From assembly GCA_024404875.1 (NCBI GenBank), contig JAKSPK010000003.1, forward strand, positions 16,497 through 80,496: a stretch of DNA of 64,000 nt. Reading direction: 5' to 3'. Of this stretch, positions 3,892-21,947 are shown piece by piece. A program made the position numbers and the translations under genes. Position 1 is the stretch's first letter. Every line of letters starts with the position of its first letter. Source of the stretch: Oscillospiraceae bacterium (lineage in GTDB: Bacteria > Bacillota > Clostridia > Oscillospirales > Ruminococcaceae). Under the pieces are notes generated by a model. That model saw only the letters and a program-made list of their open reading frames with translations, was not told the DNA's origin and made no database searches.

Positions 3892-3940
3892 TGCGGAATA
3901 CCACGACGGCCAGAAGATCAGATAAAATACAATGCTATAC

Positions 3941-3992
3941 AAAAAGCAGTTATACAAAGCGATTTTTCGCTCCGTATAACTGCTTTTCTTTC
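3941..3992. terminator. Bidirectional intrinsic terminator between convergent genes
   Basis: Perfect 12-bp stem AAGCAGTTATAC/GTATAACTGCTT, with T-rich runs on both strands (TTTCTTTCC on +, TTTTTGTAT on -). Confidence 0.7.
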
Positions 3993-4097
3993 CATATGCA
4001 TATTTGAATCTCCGAGCATGGCGAAATGAATCGAGTTATAGTATACCATATGCTGCATAGAATGACAAACAGCCAGAAAAGGTCTGCCCTGCACGCA

Positions 4098-4727
4098 TCA
4101 CCCGCCCTGCATGAGCCAGGAAAATGCCTTTGCCGTACGGAGATCCGGCTCGGTAAAATGGCCGCCCTTATTCCATTCAAGCGTACAGGCTATGCCCTGC
4201 GATTGCAGCAGTGCGAAGTCTGCACGGATGCAGTCGCCGACCGCCGACATAACTGAATGCCGCGTCTTTTCCTCGCGGTCACCAAGACTCAAATATACCC
4301 TGCCTGTCCGAAGCAAATGCGTCTGCATATACGCAGAAAAATCCGGAAACCAGACCGACGGCGATGCTGCCGCAATGCCCGTGAAAAGATCCGTCTGATA
4401 TGCCGCCCAGAGCGCAAAAAGCCCCGCCAGCGAATAACCGCCCAGGTAATAGGTTTTGCTGCTGTCGGCACAAAGCGATAAGATCTGTGCAAGCGTTTCC
4501 GCTGCGCCGCCGCCGAACGGTTCATCACCGAATACTGCCGGAGCCTGCCACGGCGAAAGCGCATGATTCCAGCGATCGGTCTTGACTGCGACCAACTGAA
4601 AATCCTGCTTTGTCATCTCGCGGATCAGCCTGATTTCGGTGTCAATCGCTGAAAGATCATAAGCATTGACAGGCTGAATCAGAACAGTCTTCGCATCGCG
4701 GCCGAATTCAATGATCTCCATGAGCAT
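4098..4727 (-). CDS. Alpha/beta-fold hydrolase (putative esterase)
   Basis: 209 aa with nucleophile elbow G-Y-S-L-A-G in YYLGGYSLAGLFALWAAY. The SD GGAGG abuts the first ATG, so the true start may be the second ATG at 4721. Confidence 0.6.
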   Translation of the reverse strand: MLMEIIEFGRDAKTVLIQPVNAYDLSAIDTEIRLIREMTKQDFQLVAVKTDRWNHALSPWQAPAVFGDEPFGGGAAETLAQILSLCADSSKTYYLGGYSLAGLFALWAAYQTDLFTGIAAASPSVWFPDFSAYMQTHLLRTGRVYLSLGDREEKTRHSVMSAVGDCIRADFALLQSQGIACTLEWNKGGHFTEPDLRTAKAFSWLMQGG

Positions 4728-4851
4728 CCTCCATAGTATACATTCTTTTCCTTAGCTTCCGGCCAGAACAACACGAAATTATCCGTTCTCCGACGGCTGT
4801 CTCTATCCGGCGGGCTGCGGCACCGGGTTAATCCCCCTCACACCATAAATA

Positions 4852-4883
4852 GCGCCCCCGCAGAAAATGATTCTGCGGGGGCG
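4852..4883 (-). terminator. Hairpin terminator after coaX
   Basis: GC-rich stem CGCCCCCGCAGAA/TTCTGCGGGGGCG lies 20 nt downstream of the coaX stop. The U-tract on the minus strand is weak (CTATTTAT). Confidence 0.5.
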
Positions 4884-4902
4884 TCCGCTTGGGTTTTGTT
4901 AT

Positions 4903-5703
4903 TTATGCTTCGGAGCCGGAGACTTTCCCGGAATTTGTCGCTGTATTGCGCTGATAGATCAGCATCAGTCCCTTGAGCAGCAGATGCTCGTCATGAATGA
5001 TCTTTCGTCGGCAGAAGGGAATGATGCGCGGTGCATTGCCGCCGGTCGCTACGACCGTACACGGCTGTCCCAGTTCCTCCTCAATGCGTGCGGTCACGCC
5101 GTCGATCGCGCAGGCGGTGCTGTATATAATCCCGCTTTTCAGGCAATCAACGGTATTCGCTGCAATGAGCTTTTTCGGCGGTTCAAGTGATATTTCCGGC
5201 AGCTGTGCGGCGCGTCCTGTGAGTGAATCCAGCGCAACACGCACACCGGGAATGATGATCCCGCCGATAAATGTTTTGCTCGCATCGACAACGGAAACCG
5301 TCGTCGCTGTGCCCATATCGACAGTAATGACCGGACAGGGATAATAATGGGAAGCAGCAGCAGCATCTGCGACACGGTCACTGCCGAGCGCTGCAGGATT
5401 GTCCACATGAATTTTCAGACCGGTTTTTACCCCTGCGCCCAGAACCAACGGCTCTTTCCCAGTCATCCGAAGAATTGAGCTTCGGACGGTCTGCGTGACA
5501 GGCGGCACGACAGACGAAATGATACATCCATCGAAATCCCGGAAGTCCATGTCATTCAGCTCAAGGACGGTTTGGATCAGGACAATGTATTCCAGATCGG
5601 TTGAAAGCCGTTCCGTTGACATCCGCTCCATAAAGATGATCCTGTCATCTTCAAAGCTGCTGACAACGATATTTGTATTGCCGATATCGACAGCCAGAAT
5701 CAT
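4903..5703 (-). CDS. coaX: Type III pantothenate kinase
   Basis: 266 aa. The N-terminus MILAVDIGNTNIV and the ...ATGGNA... segment are typical of the CoaX/acetate-sugar kinase fold. The start lies 3 nt after the upstream stop. Confidence 0.9.
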   Translation of the reverse strand: MILAVDIGNTNIVVSSFEDDRIIFMERMSTERLSTDLEYIVLIQTVLELNDMDFRDFDGCIISSVVPPVTQTVRSSILRMTGKEPLVLGAGVKTGLKIHVDNPAALGSDRVADAAAASHYYPCPVITVDMGTATTVSVVDASKTFIGGIIIPGVRVALDSLTGRAAQLPEISLEPPKKLIAANTVDCLKSGIIYSTACAIDGVTARIEEELGQPCTVVATGGNAPRIIPFCRRKIIHDEHLLLKGLMLIYQRNTATNSGKVSGSEA

Positions 5704-5706
5704 AAT

Positions 5707-6348
5707 TTACGCTCCGTTGGATTTGTTCATCGGGAGAATGTGCGAGGCATAGAGCGCGGTGCCAACACCGCCGCTGACAATCGTAGAGACGATCATCTCG
5801 ACAACAGCATTGAGGCCGACAAACGCACAGATAAACAGGAATGTGCCGCTGAGAGACTGTTCCTGACCGAATTTCTGATAGAGTCCCTGCACATATTCGG
5901 TTTTGCCGAAGAGCAGGACGAGTCCGGTCATGAAGAAGGCCGTGTTAAGAAATGCGGAGCAGAAGCCCGTGATGAAGCTCGACACCTTTCCGCCGATCTT
6001 TTTTTCAAGCGCCTGATGCAGCAGGCCGAGCAGCAGACCGTCCAGTGCACGCGGAACAAATCGCTGCACGAATGCGAGGAACGGGTTGATGTCGAACAGA
6101 ATCGCGCCCATGCCGCTCGGTACACCAATGCCGATGCACTGTAAAAAGCTCAGCAGGCCGAATACGGATCCCATGACGAGGCCGCCTACAGGTCCGAGTG
6201 CGATCGCTGCGATCGCGACAGGAATGATGTTGAGTGTGATCGAGAGCGGCCCAATCGGAATGGTACCGATCGGTGTGAATGAGAACAGCAGCAGGACTGC
6301 TGTCATCAGACCGAGGATCACGATTGCCTTGGTTTTGGTGCTTTTCAT
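5707..6348 (-). CDS. ECF-transporter substrate-specific (S) component, PanT-like by context
   Basis: 213 aa, about 6 TM, SD AAGGAGG. It sits immediately upstream of and is coupled to coaX, which suggests pantothenate specificity (inference). Confidence 0.6.
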   Translation of the reverse strand: MKSTKTKAIVILGLMTAVLLLFSFTPIGTIPIGPLSITLNIIPVAIAAIALGPVGGLVMGSVFGLLSFLQCIGIGVPSGMGAILFDINPFLAFVQRFVPRALDGLLLGLLHQALEKKIGGKVSSFITGFCSAFLNTAFFMTGLVLLFGKTEYVQGLYQKFGQEQSLSGTFLFICAFVGLNAVVEMIVSTIVSGGVGTALYASHILPMNKSNGA

Positions 6349-6407
6349 TTTAAAGATTCCTCCTTGTTGTTATCATTCCCCTTTCGGGGATACAATACAG
6401 CAACATC

Positions 6408-6436
6408 ATTATAGCGCAAAAAAAAGCAAATGTAAA
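6408..6436 (-). promoter_or_regulatory. Sigma-A-type promoter TTTACA-17-TATAAT for the S-component/coaX operon
   Basis: Read on the minus strand as TTTACAtttgcttttttttgcgcTATAAT. Confidence 0.55.
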
Positions 6437-6467
6437 CAAATTCCGGCAGATTCGTCAAAACTGCCGG
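6434..6467 (-). terminator. Intrinsic terminator (CCGGCAG/CTGCCGG plus T-rich tail)
   Basis: The minus strand reads CCGGCAGttttgacgaatCTGCCGGaatttgttt. It lies just downstream of the decayed small ORF at 6495-6693. Confidence 0.5.
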
Positions 6468-6740
6468 ATTCCCGTATCAAACCGAAATGTGAATTTATAT
6501 ATTCAGCCATGCATCAACCATTGTTTTGCCAGGCCGAGCCTGGATCCATTTTGAGATCAGGCTGCGGAGATCGGGAAGAGCATTGAAGAAAAAGCAGAAT
6601 CTGCCTGTATTTGTCTATGGGAAGCTCGATCATCTCATAACCGATTCGCACATACGGATTATTTTTCTCACCATTGAACGCTGTGAGCGGCATATTTATA
6701 GTATGCTTTCGGAGTGATACATAGAATCCATCCCTGCCAC

Positions 6741-6780
6741 CAAAAATGCCAAAAGACCCGGACAGTTTCAACTGTCCGGG
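6741..6780 (-). terminator. Intrinsic terminator after lysA
   Basis: The minus strand reads CCCGGACAGttgaaaCTGTCCGGGtcttttggcattttt, a 9-bp GC-rich stem plus a U-rich tail. Confidence 0.75.
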
Positions 6781-6919
6781 TTGATTGATGTAACAACAAC
6801 CTCTTGACGCAATTTGACTTTCTTTTGGCTGCAAGGTTTTGTTTTTGAAATAAGGCACTGCTGTTTTGGCGCAGCAGATACGGATGACAGTACGAACGCT
6901 GTATAATCCGTGTCGTATT

Positions 6920-8188
6920 TCACTTCCGATATTTGTCCATGATATCGCAGAAATCAAAGGTTGCAAAATAATCAGCCGGTGTCTCTGCTCGGCGAATCAG
7001 CTTCACATTGCCGTCCTCGCAGAACAGCAGCTCCGCAGAACGCAGCTTTCCGTTATAGTTATAGCCCATAGAAAAACCGTGTGCGCCGGTATCGTGAATA
7101 TAAAGCAGATCACCGATTTCCACTGGCGGCAGCATCCGGTCAATCGCGAATTTGTCGTTGTTTTCGCACAGGCCGCCGGTTACATCGCAGAGATAAGAAC
7201 AGGGCTCGTCCTCTTTACCCAGCACAGTGATATGGTGATAAGCGCCGTATATGGCAGGACGCATCAGGTTTGCAGCGCAGGCATCGCAGCCGACATATTC
7301 TTTGTAGATATGTTTTTTGTGCAGAACGCGTGTGATCAGTCCGCCGAAAGGCGCGAGCATGAATCTGCCCATTTCCGTAAAAATCGCAACATCGCTGAGT
7401 CCTGCCGGAACAAGGATTTCCTCAAATACCCTGCGCACGCCCTCACCGATCGCGAGAATGTCATTCGGTGTCTGATCGGGATGATATGCCACGCCGACAC
7501 CGCCGGAAAGATTGATAAAGCGGATATCTGCGCCGGTCTCCTTTTTCAGATCAGCGGCGAGCTGAAACATCTCCCGCGCAAGCGTCGGATAGTATTCATT
7601 CGTGACAGTGTTCGATGCGAGAAATGCGTGGATGCCAAAATGCTTTGCACCCTTCTGCATCAGCATTCTGAAGCCCTCAAACATCTGCTCGCGGGTAAAG
7701 CCGTATTTTGCATCCTGCGGCTTATCCATTACGAATGTCGAGATCTTGAAATCGCCGCCGGCGTTGAATCGGCAGCAGATTGTTTCCGGAATGCCGGTCA
7801 GTTTTTCGAGGTATTCGATATGCGTGATATCATCGAGATTGATGTATGCACCGAGCTGATACGCAAGCTGATAATCCGCAGCCGGTGTCACATTCGATGA
7901 AAACATGATATCGCTGCCGGAAAAACCGCAGGCATCAGCCATTTGCAGCTCGGTCAGCGAGGAGCAGTCCGCACCGCATCCTTCCTCCTGCAGAATCTTC
8001 AGGATAAACGGATTCGGCGTTGCTTTGACTGCAAAATATTCGCGGAAGCCCTTATTCCATGCAAATGCCTGCTTGACAAGTCGTGCATTCTCTCGGATAC
8101 CGCGCTCATCGTAGATATGAAACGGCGTCGGATACTGCGCAGTGATCTCCTCAGCCTGCTCTTTTGTAATAAAGGGTGTTTTCTTCAT
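6920..8188 (-). CDS. lysA: Diaminopimelate decarboxylase (PLP-dependent Orn/DAP/Arg decarboxylase family)
   Basis: YFAVKATPNP carries the PLP lysine, and the protein has the fold-type III decarboxylase layout. It follows dapL and a dapF domain on the same strand. The start was chosen at the second ATG (MKKTPF, SD GAGGA 9 nt upstream); the ORF track start is 8203. Confidence 0.75.
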   Translation of the reverse strand: MKKTPFITKEQAEEITAQYPTPFHIYDERGIRENARLVKQAFAWNKGFREYFAVKATPNPFILKILQEEGCGADCSSLTELQMADACGFSGSDIMFSSNVTPAADYQLAYQLGAYINLDDITHIEYLEKLTGIPETICCRFNAGGDFKISTFVMDKPQDAKYGFTREQMFEGFRMLMQKGAKHFGIHAFLASNTVTNEYYPTLAREMFQLAADLKKETGADIRFINLSGGVGVAYHPDQTPNDILAIGEGVRRVFEEILVPAGLSDVAIFTEMGRFMLAPFGGLITRVLHKKHIYKEYVGCDACAANLMRPAIYGAYHHITVLGKEDEPCSYLCDVTGGLCENNDKFAIDRMLPPVEIGDLLYIHDTGAHGFSMGYNYNGKLRSAELLFCEDGNVKLIRRAETPADYFATFDFCDIMDKYRK

Positions 8189-8344
8189 TATTCTATTCCT
8201 CATCCTAACATCTCATGTTTTGATTGCCTTTTTGTTACAAACCGGTATTTATCTGACTGCAGCAGAAAAGAGTCATATATGCGCGAGATTCGGCGTATGG
8301 GCGAGGCCATGCCATGAGCCGAACACCGGCGCGGACTCTGCGCA

Positions 8345-9520
8345 TTACAATGCAGCGAGATACGCCGCAGCCTTTGTAACGGTCTCTCTTGTGCCGAATG
8401 ACGAGAACCGCAGCCAGCCCTGACCGGCTTTACCGAAGCCGGCGCCCGGTGTTCCGGCAATGCCGAAGCTGTTCAGCAGATAATCGAAGTATTCCCACGA
8501 ATCAGCACCGTCGGGGCACTGCATCCAGACATACGGCGCATTCTCGCCGCCGACAGAATGAATACCCGCTTTTGTCAGCGCAGCCTTGATGATCCGCGCA
8601 TTCTCCATGTAATAATCAATATCCTCATGAACGGCACGCAGACCCTCGTCTGTGAAAACCTTTGCAGCGGCGCGCTGAATAATATATGAAGTACCGTTGT
8701 ATTTTGTCGCCATGCGGCGGAACCACATATCATGCAGCGATGCGCCGTCAAATTGAAGTGTGCGCGGAACAACCGTCCAGCCGCAGCGGACACCGGTGAA
8801 GCCTGCCGTTTTCGAGAGTGAATTGATCTCGATCGCGCAGGTCTCCGCGCCGTCGATTTCAAAAATGCTGTGCGGCAGTTCGGGATCACGAATATACGCT
8901 TCATATGCTGCATCGAACAAGATCAGCGCGCCATTATCCTTTGCATATGCGATCCATTTCGCAAGCTGATCTTTCGTATAGACTGCGCCGGTCGGATTGT
9001 TCGGCGAACAGAGATAAATGATATCCGCATGAACTGCTGCATCAGGCATCGGCAGGAATCCGTTTTCCTTTGAGCCGCACGCGAAGATTACGCGCCGCCC
9101 CGCCATGATGCTTGTATCGTAATAGACCGGATAAACCGGATCCGGCAGCAGTACCGTGTTGTCTGAATCAAACAGATCACAGAGATTGCCGAGGTCGCAT
9201 TTGGCACCATCGCTGATGAACACATCTGCTGCATCAACCTTTATGCCGCGCTTCTGATAATATCCGGCGATTGTTTCCCGCAGGAACGGCTCGCCCTGCT
9301 CAGCACCGTAGCCGTGAAATGTCTCCGCATGAGACATATCTTCGGCGGCGGCTTTCATTTCATCAGTGATGATCGCTGCGAGCGGGCGCGTGACATCACC
9401 GATACTCAGCTTTAACAGCTCACGCTCAGGATGCGCCGCCTGAAAAGCGGAGATACGCTTTGCAACCTCCGAAAATAAATAATTCTGCTCCAATTCGAGC
9501 GCATGATGATTGACTTTCAT
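8345..9520 (-). CDS. dapL: LL-diaminopimelate aminotransferase
   Basis: MKVNHHALELEQNYLFSEVAKRISAFQAAHPERELLKLSIGDVTRPL is a typical DapL N-terminus. The ATG at 9520 sits 1 nt after the upstream TAA and is preceded by GAGGTG; the track's upstream extension to 9562 is rejected. Confidence 0.9.
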   Translation of the reverse strand: MKVNHHALELEQNYLFSEVAKRISAFQAAHPERELLKLSIGDVTRPLAAIITDEMKAAAEDMSHAETFHGYGAEQGEPFLRETIAGYYQKRGIKVDAADVFISDGAKCDLGNLCDLFDSDNTVLLPDPVYPVYYDTSIMAGRRVIFACGSKENGFLPMPDAAVHADIIYLCSPNNPTGAVYTKDQLAKWIAYAKDNGALILFDAAYEAYIRDPELPHSIFEIDGAETCAIEINSLSKTAGFTGVRCGWTVVPRTLQFDGASLHDMWFRRMATKYNGTSYIIQRAAAKVFTDEGLRAVHEDIDYYMENARIIKAALTKAGIHSVGGENAPYVWMQCPDGADSWEYFDYLLNSFGIAGTPGAGFGKAGQGWLRFSSFGTRETVTKAAAYLAAL

Positions 9521-9521
9521 A

Positions 9522-12500
9522 TTACACCTCAATTTCTCCGCTGAATACCAGAACCGCATCACCGGTCATATAAACAGCATCCTCTGTATAACGGATCACG
9601 AGATCGCCGCCGTTCAGATGAACTGTGACTTCCGTATCCGGTTCGCAATATCCGTTTCTGACTGCTGCTGCCGCCGCTGCACAGGCACCCGTTCCACAGG
9701 CCATCGTCTCACCGGATCCGCGTTCCCAAACGCGCATCCGCAGCGTATGAGCGTCGATAACCTGCACAAATTCTGTATTGACCTGCTCCGGGAAAACAGG
9801 ATGATGCTCGAACTCCGGCCCGACCGTTTCAAGATCGACCGCCCCGGCATTGAAAACAACACAGTGCGGATTGCCCATTGACACGCAGGTGACAGTGTAT
9901 TCTTTGCCGGCAGCTGTCAGCGGCTGCGCGATTACTTCCGGCAGTTCACTCTTCACGGGAATCTGGGCAGCATCAAAAATCGCTCTGCCCATATTGACCG
10001 CAGCAGATGTGACAACACCGTTCTGCGTCGTGACCGTAACTGTGCGAAGACCGCTTTTCGTCTCGATCATGATATCCTTTTTTGTGCAGATGCCGAAATC
10101 GTAAAGATATTTCGCGACACAGCGGATCGCATTGCCGCACATATTTCCCTCGCTGCCGTCGAGATTGAACATCCGCATTCTCGCGTCTGCAATTTCCGAG
10201 GATTCGATCAGAACCAATCCGTCACCGCCGATTCCAAAATGTCGGTCGGATAGCTGAACGGCAAGCGACTCCGGCGCAGATACGCGCTTTTCCATGCAAT
10301 TCACATAAATATAATCATTGCCGCAGCCCTGCATTTTCACAAAGGGAATGCGTCGCTTGGCTGTTCGCAGATGATTCATATTCATCAGTTCCACATTGGA
10401 ATCCCGATACCCGGTGTGCAGGCAGTTTGCAACAGCTGCCGCAGTATCAGTACATGTCAGACAAGGAATGCCGAGCGCAACCGCTTTCTTCCGGATCTTC
10501 GCTCCGTCGCGGGCAGCCATACGCGCATTTGCATCTGTTGAGACAATATAGCGGATCGTTCCATTCTCCATGAGATCGAAGGTCTCCGTATCGCCGGTGT
10601 GCAGCTTGCGCAGCATATGGACGGATAAGCCCGCGGAACGCAGTGCATCTGCGGTTCCCTCCGTTGCAAACAATTTGAAATCAAGCCGTGCAAATTTCCG
10701 TGCAATTTCGATGATATCCGGCTTGTCCGCGTCACACACCGTGAGCAGAACGCCGTTCTGATTTTTGCCGCTGTCCTCAAGCCGGTAACCGGCCGCACGA
10801 AGTCCTTTGTAAAGTGCTTCGGTCAGCGTTTTACCGATGCCGATGACCTCACCGGTCGATTTCATTTCCGGTCCGAGCATGGATTCGCCGCCAATTTTCT
10901 GGAATGAAAATACCGGTACTTTGACGGCGGTAAAGGGCGGTGTTTTGTAATAGCCCGTGCCGTATTCCATGGCCGCAAGTTTCTCGCCGAGACAGACACG
11001 CATTGCACAGTCGCAGAGCGGCAGACCGGTCAGCTTGCTCATGAACGGGACTGTTCGCGATGCACGCGGATTCACTTCGATCACATAGAGTGACTGCCCT
11101 TTGACGATATATTGCAAATTGATGAGTCCGACTGCATGCAGGCCGAGACAGATCTTTTTTGTATCCGTGAGAATCTTTTTCCGCATATCATCATCGATAT
11201 GCACCGGCGGACAGATCGCAATCGAGTCGCCGGAATGTACGCCCGTACGCTCAATATGCTCCATGATGCCGGGGATCAGAATATCCTTGCCATCACAGAT
11301 CGCATCAACTTCGATCTCTGTGCCGCGGATATACTGATCGATCAGCACAGGATTATCAATGCCGTCTGCAAGAATATTCTGCATGAATGCTTTGACATTG
11401 TCCGCATCAAATGCGATGTTCATATTTTGTCCGCCCAGCACATAGGAAGGGCGTACCAGAACCGGCAGACCGAGCTTTTTGACGGCCTCATCTGCTTCCT
11501 CGAGCGTATTGACAGTACAGCCGCGAGGCCGTTCGATCTCAAGCGACTCCAGCAGTGCGTCAAAGCGTTCGCGGTCTTCCGCGAGGTCAATGCTGTCCGC
11601 CGTTGCGCCGAGCAGCCGATAGCCTGCTTCCTCAATCACCCGTGCAAGCCGGATCGCTGTCTGTCCGCCGAATGCCGTGACCACGCCAACAGGCTTTTCC
11701 AGTGCAAGGATAGAGAGCACATCCTCCGGCGTCAGCGGCTCAAAATACAGCCGGTCAGCCGTATCAAAATCCGTCGAAACAGTCTCCGGATTATTGTTAA
11801 TCAGCACAACCTCATAGCCTGCACTTTTTAGTATCTGCACACAGTGAACTGCCGAATAATCGAACTCGATGCCCTGTCCGATTCGGATCGGCCCGCTGCC
11901 CAAAACGACAACGGTCTGATGCGGTTTTCCGGCAAGAAACAGAGCTGCTTCATCGGCTTCCGGTGTTGCATCCGGATTGCAGACGCCATAAAAATACGGT
12001 GTTTCTGCTGCAAATTCGCCCGCGCAGGTATCAACCATACGATAGATCGGACGATACTTTTTCTGCGGCAGGCCGCATCCGGAAAACGCTGCAATCGTAT
12101 CATCCGGATAGCCGAATCGCTTGGCAGTCCGATAAAGATCATCGGTCAGCGGTGCATTTTCCAGGCTGTTCTCGCAGACAACGAGATCGTGGATCTTATG
12201 CAGAAACCAAGTGTCGATTTTCGATAATGCGTGAATTTCATCTGCTGTCATTCCGCGCCTGAACGCCTCTGCTGCTGCAAACAAGCGTACATCATCCGCA
12301 TGAACCAAATGCTCATGCAATTCGCTGTCAGAGACATTGCGCAGCGCCCGCACGAGCAGCGCACTATGCTTGACTTCAGCGCCGCGCAGTGCTTTCAGCA
12401 GCGCAGATTCAAAGCTGTCGGAGATGGCCATGACCTCTCCGGTCGCTTTCATCTGCGTGCCAAGCTGATGTGACGACCCTGAAAATTTCTCGAACGGAAA

Positions 12501-13577
12501 CTTCGGCATCTTCACAGCTACATAATCCAAAGCAGGCTCAAATGCAGCGGATGTCTTGCCGGTCACTTTATTCGCGATTTCGTACAGTCTGTAGCCAACC
12601 GCAATCTTTGCGGCAACCTTGGCGATCGGATAACCCGTTGCTTTGGATGCAAGTGCTGATGAGCGGGATACACGCGGATTCACCTCAATGACGGCATATT
12701 CAAACGAATCCGGATTGAGTGCGAACTGACAGTTGCATCCGCCCTCAATTTTCAGAACCTCCGCGATTTTTAACGCAGCAGTCCGCAGCATCTGGTACTC
12801 TTTGTCTGCAAGCGTGACTGCCGGCGCAATTACAATACTGTCGCCCGTATGAATGCCGACCGGATCGAAGTTTTCCATCGAACAGACTGTGATTTTATTA
12901 CCGTCCGCATCTCGCACGATCTCAAACTCGATCTCCTTCCAGCCTGCGATGCACCGCTCCACCAGGATCTGATGAATCGGTGAAAGCCGCAGACCGTTTT
13001 CCGCGATCCGCTCCAAATCATCCGGCGTTTCCGCGATGCCGCCGCCGGTGCCTCCGAGCGTAAATGCCGGGCGGATAATGACCGGATAACCGATCTCCTC
13101 TGCAATGCTGCGTGCGGTCTCCATGTCCTCGGCAATACCGGACGGAACGCATGGCTGTCCGATCGAATCCATTGTTTCCTTGAACAGCTTGCGGTCTTCA
13201 GCACGCGCGATTGTCTCCGGATCAGCGCCAAGCAGCCGGATTCCGTTTTCTGCGAGAAATCCGCTTTCCGCGAGCTCCGCGCAAAGGTTTAATCCTGTCT
13301 GTCCGCCAAGACCGGAAAGGATGCTGTCCGGCTTTTCCTTGAGACAAATACGCTTGATGACCTCCGTTTTCAAAGGTTCCATATAGATCTGATCAGCAAT
13401 CCGTGTATCAGTCATGATCGTGGCCGGATTGGAATTGACCAGCACAACCTCGATCCCTTCCTCTTTCAGAGCACGACAAGCCTGTGTACCGGAATAGTCA
13501 AATTCCGCAGCCTGCCCAATGACGATCGGCCCGGAGCCGATGACAAGAACCTTATGAATATCCTGATTCAGCGGCAT
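9522..13577 (-). CDS. carB: Carbamoyl-phosphate synthase large subunit fused in frame to diaminopimelate epimerase (CarB-DapF)
   Basis: One 1351-aa ORF. The first ~1070 aa are a complete CarB: two ATP-grasp halves and an MGS-like allosteric domain ending ...NVELMNMNHL. The last 276 aa (9525-10352) are a complete DapF with both catalytic Cys motifs (GNMCGNAIRC and ETMACGTGACAA). There is no stop and no SD at the junction. Confidence 0.85.
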   Translation of the reverse strand: MPLNQDIHKVLVIGSGPIVIGQAAEFDYSGTQACRALKEEGIEVVLVNSNPATIMTDTRIADQIYMEPLKTEVIKRICLKEKPDSILSGLGGQTGLNLCAELAESGFLAENGIRLLGADPETIARAEDRKLFKETMDSIGQPCVPSGIAEDMETARSIAEEIGYPVIIRPAFTLGGTGGGIAETPDDLERIAENGLRLSPIHQILVERCIAGWKEIEFEIVRDADGNKITVCSMENFDPVGIHTGDSIVIAPAVTLADKEYQMLRTAALKIAEVLKIEGGCNCQFALNPDSFEYAVIEVNPRVSRSSALASKATGYPIAKVAAKIAVGYRLYEIANKVTGKTSAAFEPALDYVAVKMPKFPFEKFSGSSHQLGTQMKATGEVMAISDSFESALLKALRGAEVKHSALLVRALRNVSDSELHEHLVHADDVRLFAAAEAFRRGMTADEIHALSKIDTWFLHKIHDLVVCENSLENAPLTDDLYRTAKRFGYPDDTIAAFSGCGLPQKKYRPIYRMVDTCAGEFAAETPYFYGVCNPDATPEADEAALFLAGKPHQTVVVLGSGPIRIGQGIEFDYSAVHCVQILKSAGYEVVLINNNPETVSTDFDTADRLYFEPLTPEDVLSILALEKPVGVVTAFGGQTAIRLARVIEEAGYRLLGATADSIDLAEDRERFDALLESLEIERPRGCTVNTLEEADEAVKKLGLPVLVRPSYVLGGQNMNIAFDADNVKAFMQNILADGIDNPVLIDQYIRGTEIEVDAICDGKDILIPGIMEHIERTGVHSGDSIAICPPVHIDDDMRKKILTDTKKICLGLHAVGLINLQYIVKGQSLYVIEVNPRASRTVPFMSKLTGLPLCDCAMRVCLGEKLAAMEYGTGYYKTPPFTAVKVPVFSFQKIGGESMLGPEMKSTGEVIGIGKTLTEALYKGLRAAGYRLEDSGKNQNGVLLTVCDADKPDIIEIARKFARLDFKLFATEGTADALRSAGLSVHMLRKLHTGDTETFDLMENGTIRYIVSTDANARMAARDGAKIRKKAVALGIPCLTCTDTAAAVANCLHTGYRDSNVELMNMNHLRTAKRRIPFVKMQGCGNDYIYVNCMEKRVSAPESLAVQLSDRHFGIGGDGLVLIESSEIADARMRMFNLDGSEGNMCGNAIRCVAKYLYDFGICTKKDIMIETKSGLRTVTVTTQNGVVTSAAVNMGRAIFDAAQIPVKSELPEVIAQPLTAAGKEYTVTCVSMGNPHCVVFNAGAVDLETVGPEFEHHPVFPEQVNTEFVQVIDAHTLRMRVWERGSGETMACGTGACAAAAAAVRNGYCEPDTEVTVHLNGGDLVIRYTEDAVYMTGDAVLVFSGEIEV

Positions 13578-14662
13578 TTCTGCACCTCCATCATCTGAAC
13601 GAATTCATCAAAAATGAAAGCCGTATCCTGCGGGCCGGCACAGGCCTCCGGATGAAACTGCACGGATATGGCAGGGAAATTGCGGTAGCGCAATCCCTCA
13701 CAGGTATTGTCATTGAGGTTGACATAGAGCAGGTCGGCTTTCTTGCTGCAGTGCGGATCATCTGTATTATACTGCACCTGATATCCGTGATTCTGTGTCG
13801 TGATGGCCATGCGCTTCGTTTCAAGATTCAGAACCGGCTGATTCGCGCCGCGGTGACCAAACTTCATCTTTGCGGTCGTGATTCCGTTCGCGAGCGCCAG
13901 CAGCTGATGTCCGAGACAGATTGCCATAATCGGAATACCGAGCGTAATGATTTTTTGCAGCTCAGCGATAATCTCCGGATTATCTGCCGGATCTCCTGCT
14001 CCGTTGGATAGCATGATGCCGTCCGGATGCAGATTCGCAATATCCTCACATTTTGTATATGCGGGCACCACTGTAACACGGCATCCGCGTTCTGAAAGTG
14101 ACCGCGCGATATTTGCCTTTGCGCCGATGTCCAGCAGCACGACATGATACGGTGCATTGACATCGCCAATCGTATATGCATTCTCACAAGTCGTGTGCTT
14201 TACCGCATCAGTGACACGATATGCTCGTATCTTCGACATATCCGCCTGTTCCGGCGAATCGCAGATCATACCGTTCATCGTTCCGTGATCGCGCAGCACT
14301 CTGGTAAGTGTACGGGTATCCACACTCGTAAGAATGGGAATATTTTGCGCTGTCAGCCAATCAGCAAGCCGGCCTTCGCTCCGAAAGTTCGATGGATTCA
14401 TGCAAATCTCCGAAGCAATATAAGCAGATAAATGCGGTTTAACTGATTCAAAATCTTCAGGTATCACGCCATAGTTTCCAATCAGCGGAAAGGTCTGCAC
14501 GACCGCCTGACCGTAATAGCTCGGATCAGTCAGCGTCTCCAGATATCCGTTCATACCGGTCGCAAAAACGATTTCCGCCGTCACATTGTTCCGTGCGCCA
14601 AGCCGTTTTCCGCGGAATATCATACCGTTTTCCAATACAAGACAGCCCTCAGTTGCATCCAT
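13568..14662 (-). CDS. carA: Carbamoyl-phosphate synthase small (glutamine amidotransferase) subunit
   Basis: 364 aa with the triad Cys motif ICLGHQLLALANG and HRGANQPV. It overlaps the carB start by 10 nt. Confidence 0.92.
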   Translation of the reverse strand: MDATEGCLVLENGMIFRGKRLGARNNVTAEIVFATGMNGYLETLTDPSYYGQAVVQTFPLIGNYGVIPEDFESVKPHLSAYIASEICMNPSNFRSEGRLADWLTAQNIPILTSVDTRTLTRVLRDHGTMNGMICDSPEQADMSKIRAYRVTDAVKHTTCENAYTIGDVNAPYHVVLLDIGAKANIARSLSERGCRVTVVPAYTKCEDIANLHPDGIMLSNGAGDPADNPEIIAELQKIITLGIPIMAICLGHQLLALANGITTAKMKFGHRGANQPVLNLETKRMAITTQNHGYQVQYNTDDPHCSKKADLLYVNLNDNTCEGLRYRNFPAISVQFHPEACAGPQDTAFIFDEFVQMMEVQKCR

Positions 14663-14742: not shown

Positions 14743-16812
14743 TCAAACACTGTAAAGCAGATCTGCATAGGTGGGGAAGGGCTGATATTCCTTTGCTGTC
14801 AGCGGTTCAAGCTGATCGGCAGCGGCACGCAGCTCATTCATTGCAGGAATGATCGTGTCACGGCAGTAGTACGACGGATGCTCGTTATCAAAGAGTCCGA
14901 TCATCACGTTTTCAAGTGCTTCAGTCTTTGCCGCGATCTCGTCGGTCAGCGCGCTGACTCTCCGCAGCAGATCGGTCTCGGCCAAGCCCTGCACACCGAG
15001 CTCCTTTTTCTTCATCGCATAATCCGCAAGTGCCTCACCGTACCGGAAGCCCGCCGGAATGATCTGCGTACGAGCCATGTCGATCATCGTATTTGCTTCA
15101 ATCACAATGAGCTTCGTGTAGTTCTCAAGCAGAATATCCTTACGAGAAACGACTTCGCTGTGATTGTAAACGCCGAACCGCTTGAAGAGTGCAACATTCT
15201 TTTCAGTAGCAAATGCATGCATCGCGTCGGCTGTTGTGCGGAGATTGAGCAGACCGCGGCGCTCTGCCTCTGCAACCCATTCCTGCGAATAGTTGTTGCC
15301 GTTGAAAATGATGCGGCCATGTGTTTTCAGTGTATCCGAGAGGATTTTCTGTACTGCCTCTGCAACATCCTCTGCGCCCTCCAGACGATCAGCAAAATTG
15401 CAAAGAGCTTCTGCAAAGATCGTATTCAGCGCAATATTTGTATCAGCGATGGAGTTCTCCGAGCCGAGCATACGGAACTCAAACTTATTGCCGGTGAAAG
15501 CCATCGGTGAAGTACGGTTGCGGTCTGAGGTGTCCTTCTTGAAATCGGGGAGAACATGAACGCCGGTCATCAGGGTTTCGTGGTGCTTCTGCTCATCGCG
15601 GCCCTCAGCGGCTGCTTCGAGCTGGAGCTGGAGGTCATCTCCAAGATATACCGAAACGATCGCAGGCGGTGCTTCATTTGCGCCAAGACGGTGGTCGTTT
15701 CCAGCGGATGCAACCGACATTCTCAGCAGATCCTGATGCTCATCTACAGCAGCAACAACCGCTGCAACCATCAGCAGGAACAGTCTTTTGCGCTCCGGCG
15801 TTTTGCCCGGTGCAAAGAGGTTGATGCCGGTATCGGTCGAGAGCGACCAGTTATTGTGCTTGCCGCTGCCATTGACACCTGCGAACGGTTTTTCATGCAG
15901 CAGGCACATCAGTCCGTGGCGTTCCGCGACCTTCTTCATGATCTCCATTGTGAGCTGGTTGTGGTCGCAGGCGAGGTTCATAGTCGTATAAACAGGTGCA
16001 AGCTCATGCTGTGCAGGAGCGACCTCATTATGCTCTGTCTTCGCGTAGATGCCGAGCTTCCAAAGTTCCTCGTTCAGATCCTTCATGAAAGCCTGTACAC
16101 GCGGCCGGATCACGCCGAAATAATGATCCTCCATCTCCTGACCTTTCGGTGCTTTTGCTCCGAACAGTGTTCTGCCGGTAAAGAGGATATCCTTGCGCTG
16201 CTTCGCGATTTCGCGGTCGATAAGGAAGTATTCCTGCTCCGGACCGACCGTTCCGCTGACGCGCTTCACATCGTCAAAGCCCAGCAGATGCAGCACCTTG
16301 ACTGCCTGCTCGCTGACGGCTTCCATAGAACGCAGCAGCGGCGTTTTCTTATCAAGTGCCTCACCGCTGTAGGAATAAAATGCAGTCGGGATGCACAGGC
16401 TGTTTTCCTTGATGAATGCATAGGATGTCGGGTCCCAGGCCGTATAGCCGCGTGCTTCAAAAGTTGCGCGGAGACCGCCCGACGGGAACGAAGATGCATC
16501 CGGTTCGCCCTTGATCAGCTCCTTGCCGGAAAATTCAAGAATCGCACCGCCATTTCCATCAGGGGAAAGGAAGCTGTCATGCTTCTCTGCGGTGATACCG
16601 GTCATCGGCTGGAACCAGTGCGTGTAATGCGTTGCGCCGTTTTCCACAGCCCATTCACGCATCGCGCTGGCGACCACATCCGCAACGGTCTGGTCAATGT
16701 CCTTGCCGTCCGCAATGGTCTCGTGCAGGGATTTGTAGACCGCTTTCGGCAGGCGCTCCTGCATTACGGCATCATTGAACACAAGTCTTCCGAATACATC
16801 AGTCGGTTTCAT
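14743..16812 (-). CDS. glnN: Glutamine synthetase type III
   Basis: 689 aa. The length and the N-terminus [29 protein letters not shown]...[12 protein letters not shown] are typical of GSIII. Confidence 0.9.
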
Positions 16813-16882
16813 AATCTTACATCCTTTCTGTATTTGGCATCTGTCCGAAATGCCGCTCTATGTATGACGGCATTCAGCAGAT

Positions 16883-16941
16883 AAACAAAAAAACAGCAAC
16901 GGCATCACGGGACTCATCCCGAAACAGCGCCGTTGCTGTTT
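16883..16941 (-). promoter_or_regulatory. Leader attenuator: intrinsic terminator overlapped by tandem small hairpins (ANTAR-target-like)
   Basis: The terminator is AACAGCAACGGC/GCCGTTGCTGTT (12 bp, perfect) plus T7. The alternative hairpins are CAGC-AACGGC-GCTG (16925-16938) and CGGG-ATGAGT-CCCG (16908-16921). Confidence 0.65.
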
Positions 16942-16951
16942 TCTGTATCAC

Positions 16952-16980
16952 ATCATAACACATTTTTTTGAATTTGTCAA
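16952..16980 (-). promoter_or_regulatory. Sigma-A-type promoter TTGACA-17-TATGAT (TGn extended -10) for glnN
   Basis: The minus strand reads TTGACAaattcaaaaaaatgtgtTATGAT. Confidence 0.65.
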
Positions 16981-16984
16981 TCAC

Positions 16985-17013
16985 TTGACAGAAAATTCAC
17001 AAAGTTTTACAAT
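16985..17013 (+). promoter_or_regulatory. Consensus promoter TTGACA-17-TACAAT pointing antisense into the ANTAR gene and glnA
   Basis: The plus strand reads TTGACAgaaaattcacaaagtttTACAAT. Its -35 box forms a palindrome (TGTCAA-tcac-TTGACA) with the -35 box of the glnN promoter. Confidence 0.4.
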
Positions 17014-17027
17014 CTGCCCATGAATTT

Positions 17028-17618
17028 TCATCGTTGCTCATAGGTTTTTAGGATATTTTCAGCAGCCGTCCGTTTTGAGATACGCTGATTCATTGCCTGC
17101 TGCTCAATGTATTTATGCGCCTGCTCCTCGGTCATTCCGAGATACTGAATAAGCGCATACTTTGCACGGTTGACAATGCGCAGATCGATGAGCTTGATCT
17201 GCAGGCGCTGGTTTTCCAGCAACAGAATCTGCGTTCTCGAATAGGCAGAGGCAGCATCATACAGCACCTGATGAAACGAAAAATGTGAGAACGGTCTGCC
17301 GAGCACAAAGATGCCGGCAGGTTCAAGCGACTGCCGGAACTCAGTCTCCTGTTCATTTTTTACGACAGCCACAACGGTCGAGGGGGTATTCTCTGCAAGA
17401 TCGCTTGCAAGCTCGGTGCCGCATTCATCAGCGAGTGGTATGTTGATAAGAACGACCGTACAGCGATTGCCCATCATTTTTTGACGTGCTTCCGTACAGG
17501 AGGCGGCACTGCCTGAGATCGTAAAGTCGCCATCCGGCAGGTTGTCCCGTACATAGCGATGAAAATTCTCGTTCGAGGAAATGACGAAAACCTCTTTCTG
17601 CTCCAAGCGTGTCAGCAT
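17028..17618 (-). CDS. ANTAR-domain RNA-binding antiterminator with degenerate receiver domain (NitR/AmiR-like)
   Basis: The C-terminus RAKYALIQYLGMTEEQAHKYIEQQAMNQRISKRTAAENIL is an ANTAR helix bundle. The ATG at 17618 has GGGGTG 8 nt upstream. The alternative GTG at 17630 overlaps the glnA stop (GTGA). Confidence 0.8.
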   Translation of the reverse strand: MLTRLEQKEVFVISSNENFHRYVRDNLPDGDFTISGSAASCTEARQKMMGNRCTVVLINIPLADECGTELASDLAENTPSTVVAVVKNEQETEFRQSLEPAGIFVLGRPFSHFSFHQVLYDAASAYSRTQILLLENQRLQIKLIDLRIVNRAKYALIQYLGMTEEQAHKYIEQQAMNQRISKRTAAENILKTYEQR

Positions 17619-17626
17619 GACCGGTG

Positions 17627-18853
17627 TCACCCCGTATATGCAGCAAGCAGATGCGCCGGCAGAGAGGCACGCATGAACTTGCTTTCAGACATTATTTTTC
17701 GCGCAGCGGCGAGATTCTCCGGCAGTGAGGCATATTGCGCAGCAATTTCTGCGGGCGCATCGAGCAGATTGACATTGCAGGAGGGCGGAGGTGTCAGGCC
17801 GCTAAGAATGCCGTCAAGACCTGCCCGCATAACCAGCGCGAATGCAAGATACGGATTGCAGGAAGCATCCGGTGAGCGCAGCTCCATGCGCTGATGCGAA
17901 GCATCTGCCGCCGGGATGCGGATGAGCTGCGAGCGGTTGCTCGGCGACCAGGAAACACGGTTCGGCGCTTTTTTCCTGCCCAGCCGCTCATAGGAACTGT
18001 CCAGCGGATTCAGTACCGCTGTCATCTCCGAAGTATGTGCAAGAATGCCCGCCATGAACGACTGAAACAACGACTCATTTACATCTGCACGAATGTCAGC
18101 TTTTGTGATCGAGCAGTTGATATGGAATCCGCTTCCGGCTTCATCCGCGATCGGCTTCGGCGCAAATGATGCCCAGAGCCCGTTCCGCGCAGCCACCGTG
18201 CTGACGACCTGCTTGAAGGTCACGACATGATCCGCTGCACTGAGCGCACTGCTGTACCGGAAATCAATTTCATTCTGACCGGGTCCCTGCTCATGATGCG
18301 AGCGCTCCGGCTGAATTCCCATAGTCTCAAGCGTCTGACAGATCTCTCTGCGGACATTCTCGCCGCCGTCTGCCGGCGCGATATCAAAATATCCGCCGCG
18401 GTCAAGCGGGATATTCGTCGGCTCGCCATGCTCGCTGAGCTTAAACAGATAGAATTCGCATTCCGCTCCGATATCACAGCGAAGACCATGCTCCGCGAAG
18501 AGCTGTTCGGTATCGGCGAGATAGCGGCGGCAGTCCGCAGAAAAAGGTGTGCCGTCCGGATTGCGGATTTCACAGAAAAAACGCGCAACGCCGCCGCGGG
18601 AAGGTCTCCACGGCAGCAGAGTCAGCGTTGTCGGATCAGGAAACAGAAACAGGTCGGATTGTGAAGCATCACGGAAGCCGTCGATCGAAGACGCATCGAA
18701 CGCAATGCCCTGTGTAAAGGCGCGTTCAAGCTCCGATGCCTGCACCGAAATATTCTTCTGCACACCGAATACATCGCAGAATGCCAGCCGCACAAATTTG
18801 ATATCACTGCTTTCGATCAGCTCTGCGGCTTCGCGCTGCGAAACACTCAACAT
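17627..18853 (-). CDS. glnA: Glutamine synthetase (type I family)
   Basis: About 408 aa with the GS beta-grasp and catalytic domains (KFVRLAFCDVFG..., NEIDFRY, GSGFHIN). The ATG at 18853 follows SD AGGTGGTG; the track start (GTG at 18865) lies inside the SD. Confidence 0.88.
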   Translation of the reverse strand: MLSVSQREAAELIESSDIKFVRLAFCDVFGVQKNISVQASELERAFTQGIAFDASSIDGFRDASQSDLFLFPDPTTLTLLPWRPSRGGVARFFCEIRNPDGTPFSADCRRYLADTEQLFAEHGLRCDIGAECEFYLFKLSEHGEPTNIPLDRGGYFDIAPADGGENVRREICQTLETMGIQPERSHHEQGPGQNEIDFRYSSALSAADHVVTFKQVVSTVAARNGLWASFAPKPIADEAGSGFHINCSITKADIRADVNESLFQSFMAGILAHTSEMTAVLNPLDSSYERLGRKKAPNRVSWSPSNRSQLIRIPAADASHQRMELRSPDASCNPYLAFALVMRAGLDGILSGLTPPPSCNVNLLDAPAEIAAQYASLPENLAAARKIMSESKFMRASLPAHLLAAYTG

Positions 18854-18890
18854 AATCAACACCACCTATGATTGAAAGATTCATCATTTT

Positions 18891-18920
18891 ATTATACCAT
18901 ATCCGGCGAATACTTGTCAA
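18891..18920 (-). promoter_or_regulatory. Sigma-A-type promoter TTGACA-18-TATAAT for glnA
   Basis: The minus strand reads TTGACAagtattcgccggatatggTATAAT. The -35 box contains the purF stop codon. Confidence 0.55.
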
Positions 18921-20335
18921 CCATGAATTTTCCGCTCAAAGCGGTCTTTGCATTCATCCTGCTCAACAGCCGTCGGGTAATCGCCGGTAAAGCAGGCAGT
19001 ACAGATCCCGTCTGAACCCGCAAGCGCCGGCAGCGCTTCCTGCGGCAGAAATCCAAGCGAATCCGCACCAATAATCTCCGCGATCTCCTGGACGGTATGA
19101 TGATTGGCGATCAGATTTTCTTCGGAATCAATATCCGTGCCGTAATAACAGGGATGCAGGAACGGCGGCGCAGAGATGCGCATATGGATCTCGCTTGCGC
19201 CGGCTTGACGCAGCAGATTGACAATGCGGCGGCTGGTCGTGCCGCGCACGATAGAATCATCGATCAGCACAAGGCGTTTTCCCGCGACTGTCTCACAGAT
19301 CGCGCTCAGCTTGAGCTGCACGCCGCTGTCACGCTCAGACTGCGACGGTGCGATGAATGTCCGCCCGATGTATTTGTTTTTGATCAGGCCAATGCCATAG
19401 GGAATGCCGGATGCCTCCGCGAATCCGAGTGCGGCATCCAATCCCGAATCCGGCACACCAATTACAACATCCGCTTCCGCCGGATGTGCAGCAGCGAGCA
19501 GTGCGCCCGCCTTTTTCCGTGCCGCATGAACGGAAACGCCGTCCAGGACAGAATCCGGACGCGCAAAATAAATATACTCAAAAATACAGGCGCGCTTCGG
19601 TGCGGTGCCGCAATATCTGCGGTCGGACTGCATCTTGCCGTCCGGTGTCAGCACGATCATCTCGCCAGGTTCGAGATCACGCAGGAATTCCGCTCCGACC
19701 GCTGAAAGTGCACAGCTCTCTGATGCTATCACATAGCCGCCGCGCGGCAGTCTGCCGATGCAGAGCGGCCGGAATCCGTGCGGATCACGGACGGCGATCA
19801 GCTTCTGCGCGGACATGATAATCAGCGAAAATGCACCCTCCAACTGCGGAACGGCAAGCCGAACAGCATCCTCGATCGAAACGGTTTGCAGCCGCGCCTG
19901 CGTAATGAGATACGCAATGATCTCGGTATCGCTCGTCGTATGGAAGATTGCGCCGCGTTGTTCGAGAACGCTGCGCAGTCTGCCGGCATTGCTGAGATTG
20001 CCGTTGTGGACGAGCGCCATTTTTCCCTTCTGGTGATTGACCTCCATCGGCTGACAGTTTCTCCGCTGACTGCCGCCGGTCGTGCCGTATCGTGTGTGAC
20101 CGACCGCGATCCTGCCCTGCGGAAAGCTGCCGAGAATCTGAGGCGTAAACACATGATCAACGAGCCCGAGATCCTTGTGCGTTGTGAATACGCCGTCATC
20201 ATTGACGGAGATTCCCGCACCCTCCTGCCCGCGATGCTGCAATGCAAACAGGCCGCAGTATGTGAGATGTGCGAGATTTTCCGGCTGCGGTGTCAGGATA
20301 CCAAATACACCGCATTCCTCGTGTAATGAACCCAT
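18917..20335 (-). CDS. purF: Amidophosphoribosyltransferase
   Basis: 472 aa. It has the Ntn amidotransferase N-terminus MGSLHEECGVFGI and a PRPP-binding loop VLIDDSIVRGTT. Confidence 0.93.
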   Translation of the reverse strand: MGSLHEECGVFGILTPQPENLAHLTYCGLFALQHRGQEGAGISVNDDGVFTTHKDLGLVDHVFTPQILGSFPQGRIAVGHTRYGTTGGSQRRNCQPMEVNHQKGKMALVHNGNLSNAGRLRSVLEQRGAIFHTTSDTEIIAYLITQARLQTVSIEDAVRLAVPQLEGAFSLIIMSAQKLIAVRDPHGFRPLCIGRLPRGGYVIASESCALSAVGAEFLRDLEPGEMIVLTPDGKMQSDRRYCGTAPKRACIFEYIYFARPDSVLDGVSVHAARKKAGALLAAAHPAEADVVIGVPDSGLDAALGFAEASGIPYGIGLIKNKYIGRTFIAPSQSERDSGVQLKLSAICETVAGKRLVLIDDSIVRGTTSRRIVNLLRQAGASEIHMRISAPPFLHPCYYGTDIDSEENLIANHHTVQEIAEIIGADSLGFLPQEALPALAGSDGICTACFTGDYPTAVEQDECKDRFERKIHG

Positions 20336-20338
20336 ATT

Positions 20339-21937: not shown

Positions 21938-21947
21938 CATGCACACC

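Follow-up and report, generated by a model that had tools for sequence, protein, structure and literature searches.

An in-frame fusion of the carbamoyl-phosphate synthase large subunit with diaminopimelate epimerase in Oscillospiraceae and other bacteria

We analysed a 64,000-nucleotide stretch of the genome of an Oscillospiraceae bacterium (GenBank assembly GCA_024404875.1, contig JAKSPK010000003.1, positions 16,497 to 80,496; hereafter the window, at its full length). One of the open reading frames (ORFs) of this Ruminococcus-like gut bacterium encodes a complete large subunit of carbamoyl-phosphate synthase (CPS), CarB, joined in frame to a complete diaminopimelate (DAP) epimerase, DapF. 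From its sequence and genomic context, we consider it likely, with a probability of roughly 0.8, that its product acts both as CPS large subunit and as DAP epimerase. The fusion had been pointed out in an earlier note made from the letters of the window.

A complete CarB and a complete DapF in one reading frame

The carB::dapF ORF is on the minus strand. It has 1351 codons plus the stop, begins with an ATG preceded by GGAGGTG, and contains no internal stop according to the ORF list and the translation. Its parts are listed here, with the evidence in brackets.

9522..13577, minus strand: carB::dapF fusion ORF (ORF list, translation, Pfam, NCBIfam)
10368..13577, minus strand: CarB part, residues 1 to about 1070, with two pre-ATP-grasp/ATP-grasp units, the oligomerisation domain and the MGS-like allosteric domain (Pfam, NCBIfam)
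10347..10367, minus strand: junction or linker RTAKRRI, about residues 1071-1077, basic (sequence, alignment of relatives)
9525..10346, minus strand: DapF part, residues 1078-1351, complete, two-lobed, 274 residues (TIGR00652, match to PDB 2OTN)
10137..10139, minus strand: codon of Cys1147, equivalent to Cys73 of Haemophilus influenzae DapF, intact (motif NMCGN)
9696..9698, minus strand: codon of Cys1294, equivalent to Cys217, intact (motif ACGTG)

The Pfam domains matched by the protein were CPSase_L_D1 (twice), CPSase_L_D2 (twice), CPSase_L_D3, MGS and DAP_epimerase (PF01678, twice). The N-terminal part passed the cut-offs of two CarB models, with 1410.7 bits for the NCBIfam equivalog NF003671 (cut-off 599; residues 1-1055 on model positions 1-1048 of 1058) and 1372.3 bits for TIGR01369 (cut-off 1027). 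The C-terminal part scored 287.4 bits with the DapF equivalog TIGR00652 (cut-off 114.65), where residues 1078-1349 covered both lobes and model positions 2-268 of 270, and it aligned the solved DapF structure PDB 2OTN at 1.2e-72. Translation, Pfam and equivalog scores thus bear out the description of a single 1351-codon ORF with full-length CarB and DapF given in the earlier note, and the two catalytic cysteines that it regarded as intact are present (C1147 and C1294). All other motifs typical of DapF were also intact, i.e., GNDY, FNLDGSE, MCGN, GNPH, NTEF, WERGSGET and ACGTG, and the domain agreed with the consensus of 47 standalone DapFs at the conserved positions. The base composition was even across the junction (GC content 0.530 vs 0.530; GC content at third codon positions 0.57 vs 0.56). 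The domain scored 112.6 bits with the profile of the bifunctional DapF/glutamate racemase (NF038284, cut-off 350), which places it outside that family. We found no second dapF or carB within the 64-kb window.

The CarB part matches the standalone CarB of Escherichia coli (PDB 1JDB/1BXR/1A9X) in domain set and length, and its carA partner overlaps it upstream. In the alignment, residues 906-1059 of E. coli CarB are the counterpart of the allosteric domain, in which the phosphate-binding Lys/Thr positions (GDK, ATxGTA) are conserved. The E. coli protein stops about 14 residues past the aligned region, whereas the fusion runs on into the 274-residue DapF. The latter shares a fold-wide match, the cysteines and the Asn/Glu/Arg binding motifs with the standalone DapFs of Bacillus anthracis (2OTN) and H. 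influenzae (1GQZ/2GKE), and the pathway genes dapL and lysA adjoin it. Unlike standalone DapF, the fused one has neither a start codon nor a ribosome-binding site of its own, and it is attached through its N-terminus to the allosteric domain of CPS. No chain in the PDB contains both domains: CarB chains have 1073 residues and DapF chains 274-317.

The junction

The two parts meet at about nucleotides 10344-10400, in the sequence NVELMNMNHL-RTAKR-RIPFVKMQGCGNDY, which has no stop codon and no GGAGG-like or purine-rich ribosome-binding motif. We rejected the possibility of an internal start giving a separate DapF, because M1065, M1067 and M1082 are not preceded by a ribosome-binding site, unlike the starts in unfused comparators. 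These observations agree with the earlier note, which reported a junction lacking a stop and a Shine-Dalgarno sequence and internal Met codons lacking ribosome-binding sites. The note put the linker at about 8 residues, where we count about 5-7, basic in character. An alignment of 21 relatives showed no indel at the junction (consensus NTELVDINxMRxxKxxLxFTKMQGCGNDY), and the Arg and the Lys/Arg of the linker are conserved in all fusions, including that of the window.

We modelled the last 452 residues, i.e., the MGS-like domain and DapF, with AlphaFold2. The model has two confident domains and a low-confidence join, with a predicted TM-score (pTM) of 0.63. The mean predicted local distance difference test score was about 59 at residues 1060-1069, just upstream of the linker, and about 76 over the linker. 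This result fits a tether rather than a fixed interface, and the model counts as evidence neither for nor against such an interface.

Conservation and distribution of the fusion

The 90%-identity cluster of the window protein has at least nine full-length members of 1351 residues, the exact protein included, from separate NCBI/ENA assemblies. A query with the last 452 residues (allosteric domain and DapF) matched more than 100 clusters at 53-59% identity and 100% query coverage, with both PF02142 and PF01678; the named clusters among them were from Ruminococcus, R. bicirculans, Oscillospiraceae or Clostridiales. Overall, hundreds of 90%-identity protein clusters have the in-frame junction, with identities down to 48%. 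A profile search of 50%-identity representatives is uninformative on the frequency of the fusion, since the conserved CarB merges fusions into few clusters; about 10 of its best 150 matches span both domains.

We then used a scan of one genome per species, which provided 80 loci (numbered with an L in what follows). All species counts are lower bounds, and the absence of a second dapF locus from any genome in this set carries no weight. The fusion was found in at least 37 species-level genomes (about 37 of the 80 loci), at 48-62% protein identity, mostly in Oscillospirales. With the whole window protein as query, 31 loci gave a single tblastn high-scoring segment pair over residues 1-1351 in one frame, and all 31 fusion loci that were extracted whole had intact ORFs of 1341-1430 residues. 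L022 (1430 residues) and L056 (1391 residues) are longer through insertions. The hosts include Ruminococcus, Oscillospiraceae, Oscillibacter, Acutalibacter, the cultured Neglectibacter caecimuris and Ruminococcaceae AM07-15, and a metagenome-assembled genome (MAG) of Christensenellaceae. Three MAGs of Treponema/Spirochaetaceae and one of Selenomonadaceae, labelled as deposited, also encode the fusion.

The neighbour-joining trees of the CarB and DapF parts (32 sequences; all our trees are distance-based) were broadly congruent, suggesting that the two halves travelled together. The three spirochaete copies formed one clade in both trees. These copies and that of Selenomonadaceae (L022, L024, L056 and L028) are fusions of the second type described below, encoded at about 2672-7392 in each locus, on contigs of 93-130 kb with the labels Treponema, Spirochaetaceae or Selenomonadaceae. 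This pattern suggests that the gene was transferred horizontally from Clostridia, or that the contigs were binned wrongly. Taken together, the comparisons indicate that the fusion, which many Clostridia of the gut share, is genuine, old and vertically maintained, and they exclude an assembly error.

Some matches of 446-790 residues resembled a truncated CarB'-DapF architecture, which we rejected: the two that we checked (462 and 636 residues) were fragments, one from a frameshifted long-read contig (L001) and one from a scaffold gap (L002). A further short protein, P0044 (287 residues), is a gene call from an internal Met on a 1.6-kb contig. In L001 (4175-9389, on a 114-kb ENA contig) carA-carB::dapF is split by frameshifts into many short called genes, as is typical of uncorrected long reads, and the fusion is followed by NAD synthase, not by dapL.

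Two subfamilies of fusions

The fusions form two subfamilies. Type 1, found in the window and in Ruminococcus, keeps both catalytic cysteines and usually has dapL downstream. In type 2, found in Oscillibacter-like genomes and Treponema, Cys73 is replaced by Ala, Gly or Ser, and there is no nearby dapL. The window protein belongs to type 1, with Cys1147 present and dapL 1 nt downstream. Seven other fusions with intact cysteines have dapL directly downstream, as in the window, and no dapL was found within 6 kb of the type-2 loci. Type-2 fusions, e.g., L017, L018, L022 and L026, otherwise resemble the window in architecture, linker length and CarB part. The mean identity between the two classes was 65%.

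Unexpectedly, the position of Cys73 was occupied by Ala, Gly or Ser in 18 of the 32 full-length fusion genes, whereas the first catalytic cysteine (MCGN) was kept in 47 of the 47 standalone DapFs of the fetched loci, including the copies of L063 and L075. We compared both positions in the nearest 120 relatives of two C-terminal parts, that of the window and that of L017 (Oscillibacter-type).

Cys73 position, relatives of the window: Cys 116
Cys73 position, relatives of L017: Cys 0; Ala 104, Ser 8, Gly 6, unparsed 2
Cys217 position, relatives of the window: Cys 120
Cys217 position, relatives of L017: Cys at least 108

The type-2 domains keep the binding motifs. In an alignment of 119 type-1, 116 type-2 and 47 standalone domains, four positions conserved in the standalone proteins were consistently changed in type 2 (C1147A, C1094N, S1110C and M1337L in window numbering), and type 1 did not differ from standalone DapF at such positions. 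The new cysteine of type 2 at position 1110 might stand in for the lost thiol, should it lie near the active site. In three Oscillibacter-type genomes the ratio of non-synonymous to synonymous substitution rates (dN/dS) was 0.17-0.32 for the Cys-less DapF domain, at dS 0.7-0.8, and 0.10-0.19 for the CarB parts. Judging by these rates, the Cys-less domain is under purifying selection. None of the 18 type-2 ORFs sampled was truncated.

In two loci, of Neglectibacter (L009) and Acutalibacter (L021), a standalone dapF lies 0.7-1.8 kb downstream of the fusion, with pyrG and later dapL beyond it. The fused DapF domain of L021 has lost both cysteines and Glu208. Both loci have a LURP-one-related gene (PF04525) between the fusion and the standalone dapF, in the regions 7657-10022 of L009 and 6174-7703 of L021. 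In L021, a MAG, a frameshift near locus position 4411-4486 breaks carB in two.

The stretch of the allosteric domain before the junction also varies. It reads D(F/Y)IxLHxR in L017, L018, L023, L026-L028 and L080, and DSVKIRRKA in type 1. This stretch corresponds to EDSRVIRRSA in E. coli, which belongs to the nucleotide-effector pocket. Hence, effector binding may also have changed in the large Oscillibacter-type clade. The type-2 proteins of Treponema and of L030 and L034 do not have the D(F/Y)IxLHxR change.

Origin of the fusion

Two loci of uncultured, more distant Clostridia (L063 and L075) encode carA-carB-dapF-dapL with carB and dapF unfused but in the same frame. Between the two genes come a TAA stop, GAAGGA or GGGAGG as ribosome-binding site, and the ATG of dapF. 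In this the loci differ from the fusions, with which they share gene order, frame and spacing: from the "IN" at the C-terminus of CarB to the "FTKM" of DapF there are 10-11 codons in both arrangements. Because frame and spacing are the same, loss of the stop codon, with the spacer made into linker, suffices to produce the fusion. The stop and the short spacer carrying the ribosome-binding site between adjacent carB and dapF would thus have become the basic linker of about 7 residues, within a carA-carB-dapF-dapL operon. A stop between carB and dapF is therefore present in some related loci (L063 and L075), which supports an old stop loss, and absent from the fusion genomes.

The neighbour-joining tree of 85 DapF domains had star-like deep nodes and placed the window domain beside standalone DapFs; in the 32-sequence tree it stood beside the fused L003. 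The shared linker length and the conserved linker Arg and Lys favour a single origin of the fusion, and the trees do not settle between one and several.

Gene neighbourhood and probable transcription unit

The fusion is flanked by the following genes and sites.

13568..14662, minus strand: carA, CPS small subunit, overlapping the start of the fusion by 10 nt (NF009475, 453.5 bits)
8345..9520, minus strand: dapL, LL-diaminopimelate aminotransferase (TIGR03542, 519.7 bits)
6920..8203, minus strand: probable lysA, diaminopimelate decarboxylase (TIGR01048, 282.8 bits, just under the cut-off of 297.9)
14743..16812, minus strand: type III glutamine synthetase (GSIII), which probably opens the transcription unit of the fusion (Pfam GSIII_N, Gln-synt_C, Gln-synt_C-ter)
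16952..16980, minus strand: promoter-like site TTGACA-17-TATGAT, 11/12, with TG, upstream of the GSIII gene (consensus match only)
6858..6877, minus strand: terminator-like hairpin just after lysA (consensus match only)

The TAA stop of the fusion is separated by 1 nt from the ATG of dapL, whose ribosome-binding site (GAGGTG) lies within the last codons of the fusion; lysA comes next, and the gene order given in the earlier note is thereby confirmed. With a 10-nt overlap on one side and a 1-nt gap on the other, carA, carB::dapF and dapL are translationally coupled as far as their arrangement tells. A single transcript probably runs from upstream of the GSIII gene through carA, carB::dapF and dapL to just after lysA. 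An Rfam scan revealed no lysine riboswitch or other leader in the operon.

The gap between dapL and lysA (8204-8344, 141 nt) had no Rfam match and contains a weak promoter-like site (8216-8187). None of the other fetched fusion loci had a clear lysA; there was one weak match (27%), on the opposite strand, in L014. The sole Rfam match in the window was a fluoride riboswitch far from the operon (RF01734; 45408-45494, minus strand; 35.1 bits vs a gathering score of 34). Further upstream, the fusion closes a single-strand run of glutamine and nitrogen genes (14743-22670, minus strand), followed by carA. Besides the GSIII gene the run includes these.

21948-22670, minus strand: GXGXG-domain (glutamate-synthase-like) protein
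20339-21946, minus strand: CTP synthase
18917-20335, minus strand: PurF-like amidotransferase
17627-18865, minus strand: type I glutamine synthetase
17028-17630, minus strand: ANTAR regulator

Function of the fusion protein

The intact motifs, the place between the CPS genes and dapL-lysA, the coupling to both sides and the lack of a second DapF in 64 kb all lead to a bifunctional protein. Its N-terminal 1070 residues would be the large subunit of a glutamine-dependent CPS, paired with CarA. The C-terminal 274 residues would be a catalytically competent DAP epimerase that acts on the LL-DAP from DapL; its product, meso-DAP, would go into peptidoglycan and to LysA. We infer that both activities occur in one protein in vivo and that the cell relies on the fused DapF as its epimerase. 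The earlier note had described the DAP branch as welded to CPS. By sequence, this stands for the polypeptide; a functional coupling goes beyond what the polypeptide shows.

Several points weigh against this interpretation. L009 and L021 have a standalone dapF in addition to the fusion. Cys73 is missing from about half of the fusion genes sampled, so that the presence of the domain alone does not prove epimerase activity. If the chain were cleaved at the basic linker, the two halves would also end up as separate products. Finally, there is no evident catalytic rationale for the fusion: the reactions of CPS and DapF have no common substrate or intermediate, and channelling is therefore no explanation.

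The DapF module probably has a structural or regulatory role as well. A useless C-terminal domain is expected to be lost by nonsense mutations, and the persistence of the type-2 domain after loss of its thiol suggests a non-catalytic role for CPS. This may give indirect support to the earlier idea of a stoichiometric or regulatory coupling device. Two mechanisms can be envisaged. In E. coli, DapF is active as a homodimer, and CPS shifts between dimer and tetramer under the control of its allosteric-domain interface; homodimerisation of DapF could clamp two alpha-beta protomers at that interface. Alternatively, the nearly unchanged DAP pocket could act as a sensor tying meso-DAP supply to the synthesis of pyrimidine and arginine precursors. 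Carbamoyl phosphate feeds arginine and pyrimidines, hence UDP-MurNAc precursors, and the UDP-MurNAc-peptide requires both meso-DAP and UTP. It is conceivable, if still tentative, that the module is a built-in regulatory element of CPS, either a sensor of LL-/meso-DAP or a DapF-DapF clamp, linking cell-wall and lysine precursors to carbamoyl-phosphate output. Type 1 would then be a moonlighting enzyme-sensor, and type 2 a pseudo-epimerase left after thiol loss. If this is true, a textbook enzyme would prove to have allosteric control of a new kind.

Alternative explanations

The module could be mainly a non-catalytic appendage of CPS in the window too, regulatory or structural, with the working epimerase encoded elsewhere. 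It would act either by binding LL-/meso-DAP and adjusting how much carbamoyl phosphate is made, or by dimerising and setting the oligomeric state of CPS. The type-2 proteins are the main argument for it. Cys73 is replaced in over half of the full-length fusions (18/32) and absent from the 120 nearest Oscillibacter-type relatives, yet Cys217 and the binding motifs are kept in a domain that is under purifying selection, never truncated and without downstream dapL. The extra dapF of L009 and L021 points the same way, and two papers (PMC4227774, PMC6061791) present E. coli DapF as a protein-binding activator of RppH. We nevertheless regard this explanation as unlikely for the window, whose protein retains both cysteines and every conserved DapF position, as do 116 of its 120 nearest relatives for Cys73. 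It is also coupled directly to dapL and then lysA, exactly where the epimerase of the pathway is expected, with no other DapF within 64 kb; and the low-confidence linker of the AlphaFold2 model (pTM 0.63) comes with no predicted fixed interface to the allosteric domain.

Slightly less improbable, though still doubtful, is a neutral frozen accident: a stop lost in a packed operon, leaving two independent halves on a flexible tether, kept only since a renewed split would call for the gain of a stop, a ribosome-binding site and a start. According to the unfused comparators, one stop-to-sense change indeed suffices, the linker is short and modelled with low confidence, and the two reactions have neither substrate nor intermediate in common. 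Yet under neutrality the Cys73-less domain should be truncated by nonsense mutations, whereas 18 of 18 type-2 ORFs are full length with dN/dS of 0.17-0.32, and the whole family keeps the length of the linker and its Arg and Lys/Arg. A sequencing or assembly artefact, or a very recent lineage-specific stop loss, has a negligible probability. Only the prior expectation that odd fusions in draft assemblies are often errors speaks for it. Identical 1351-residue proteins from separate assemblies (at least nine full-length cluster members), together with uniform base composition across the junction, dispose of the base-calling or assembly error mentioned in the earlier note. Its alternative of a recent loss of the stop codon is refuted by the same junction and constant linker in at least 37 species-level genomes at 48-62% identity and in hundreds of clusters down to 48%. 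A bifunctional CPS large subunit and DAP epimerase thus remains our preferred interpretation of the window protein.

Relation to known systems and significance

Eukaryotic CAD and fungal Ura2 also join CPS C-terminally to other enzyme domains. In CAD the fused partners carry out the steps that follow CPS in its own pathway, whereas the DapF of the window fusion comes from an unrelated one. Yeast Ura2 keeps an inactive dihydroorotase-like domain as a structural element, a parallel to the Cys-less DapF of type 2. The chlamydial bifunctional DapF/glutamate racemase (NF038284) is another DapF-family protein with more than one role, but it has a single domain and no fusion. We found no published description of a CarB-DapF fusion in the literature searched, including work on gaps in amino-acid biosynthesis. 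The family thus combines a multifunctional CPS, whose partner is from an unrelated pathway, with a pseudo-enzyme sister subfamily; both halves are textbook enzymes and the architecture is apparently undescribed.

Public databases name these proteins (P0001, P0052, P0121, P0393 and others) either "diaminopimelate epimerase, partial" or "carbamoyl-phosphate synthase large subunit", and none as bifunctional. As only one half is annotated, metabolic reconstructions of the abundant gut and rumen Ruminococcus and Oscillospiraceae can overlook dapF, or attribute a functional one to type-2 genomes in error. Animals lack DapF and the DapL pathway, which count as antibacterial targets. Once tethered to an essential enzyme of 118 kDa, DapF may not behave as it does when free. 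The loci make up a natural series, from the unfused operon to the active fusion, the fusion with a standalone copy, and the fusion with a dead catalytic site. The family is therefore a clean system in which to study why enzymes of unrelated pathways fuse and stay fused, and how an epimerase fold may be recruited to the regulation of CPS.

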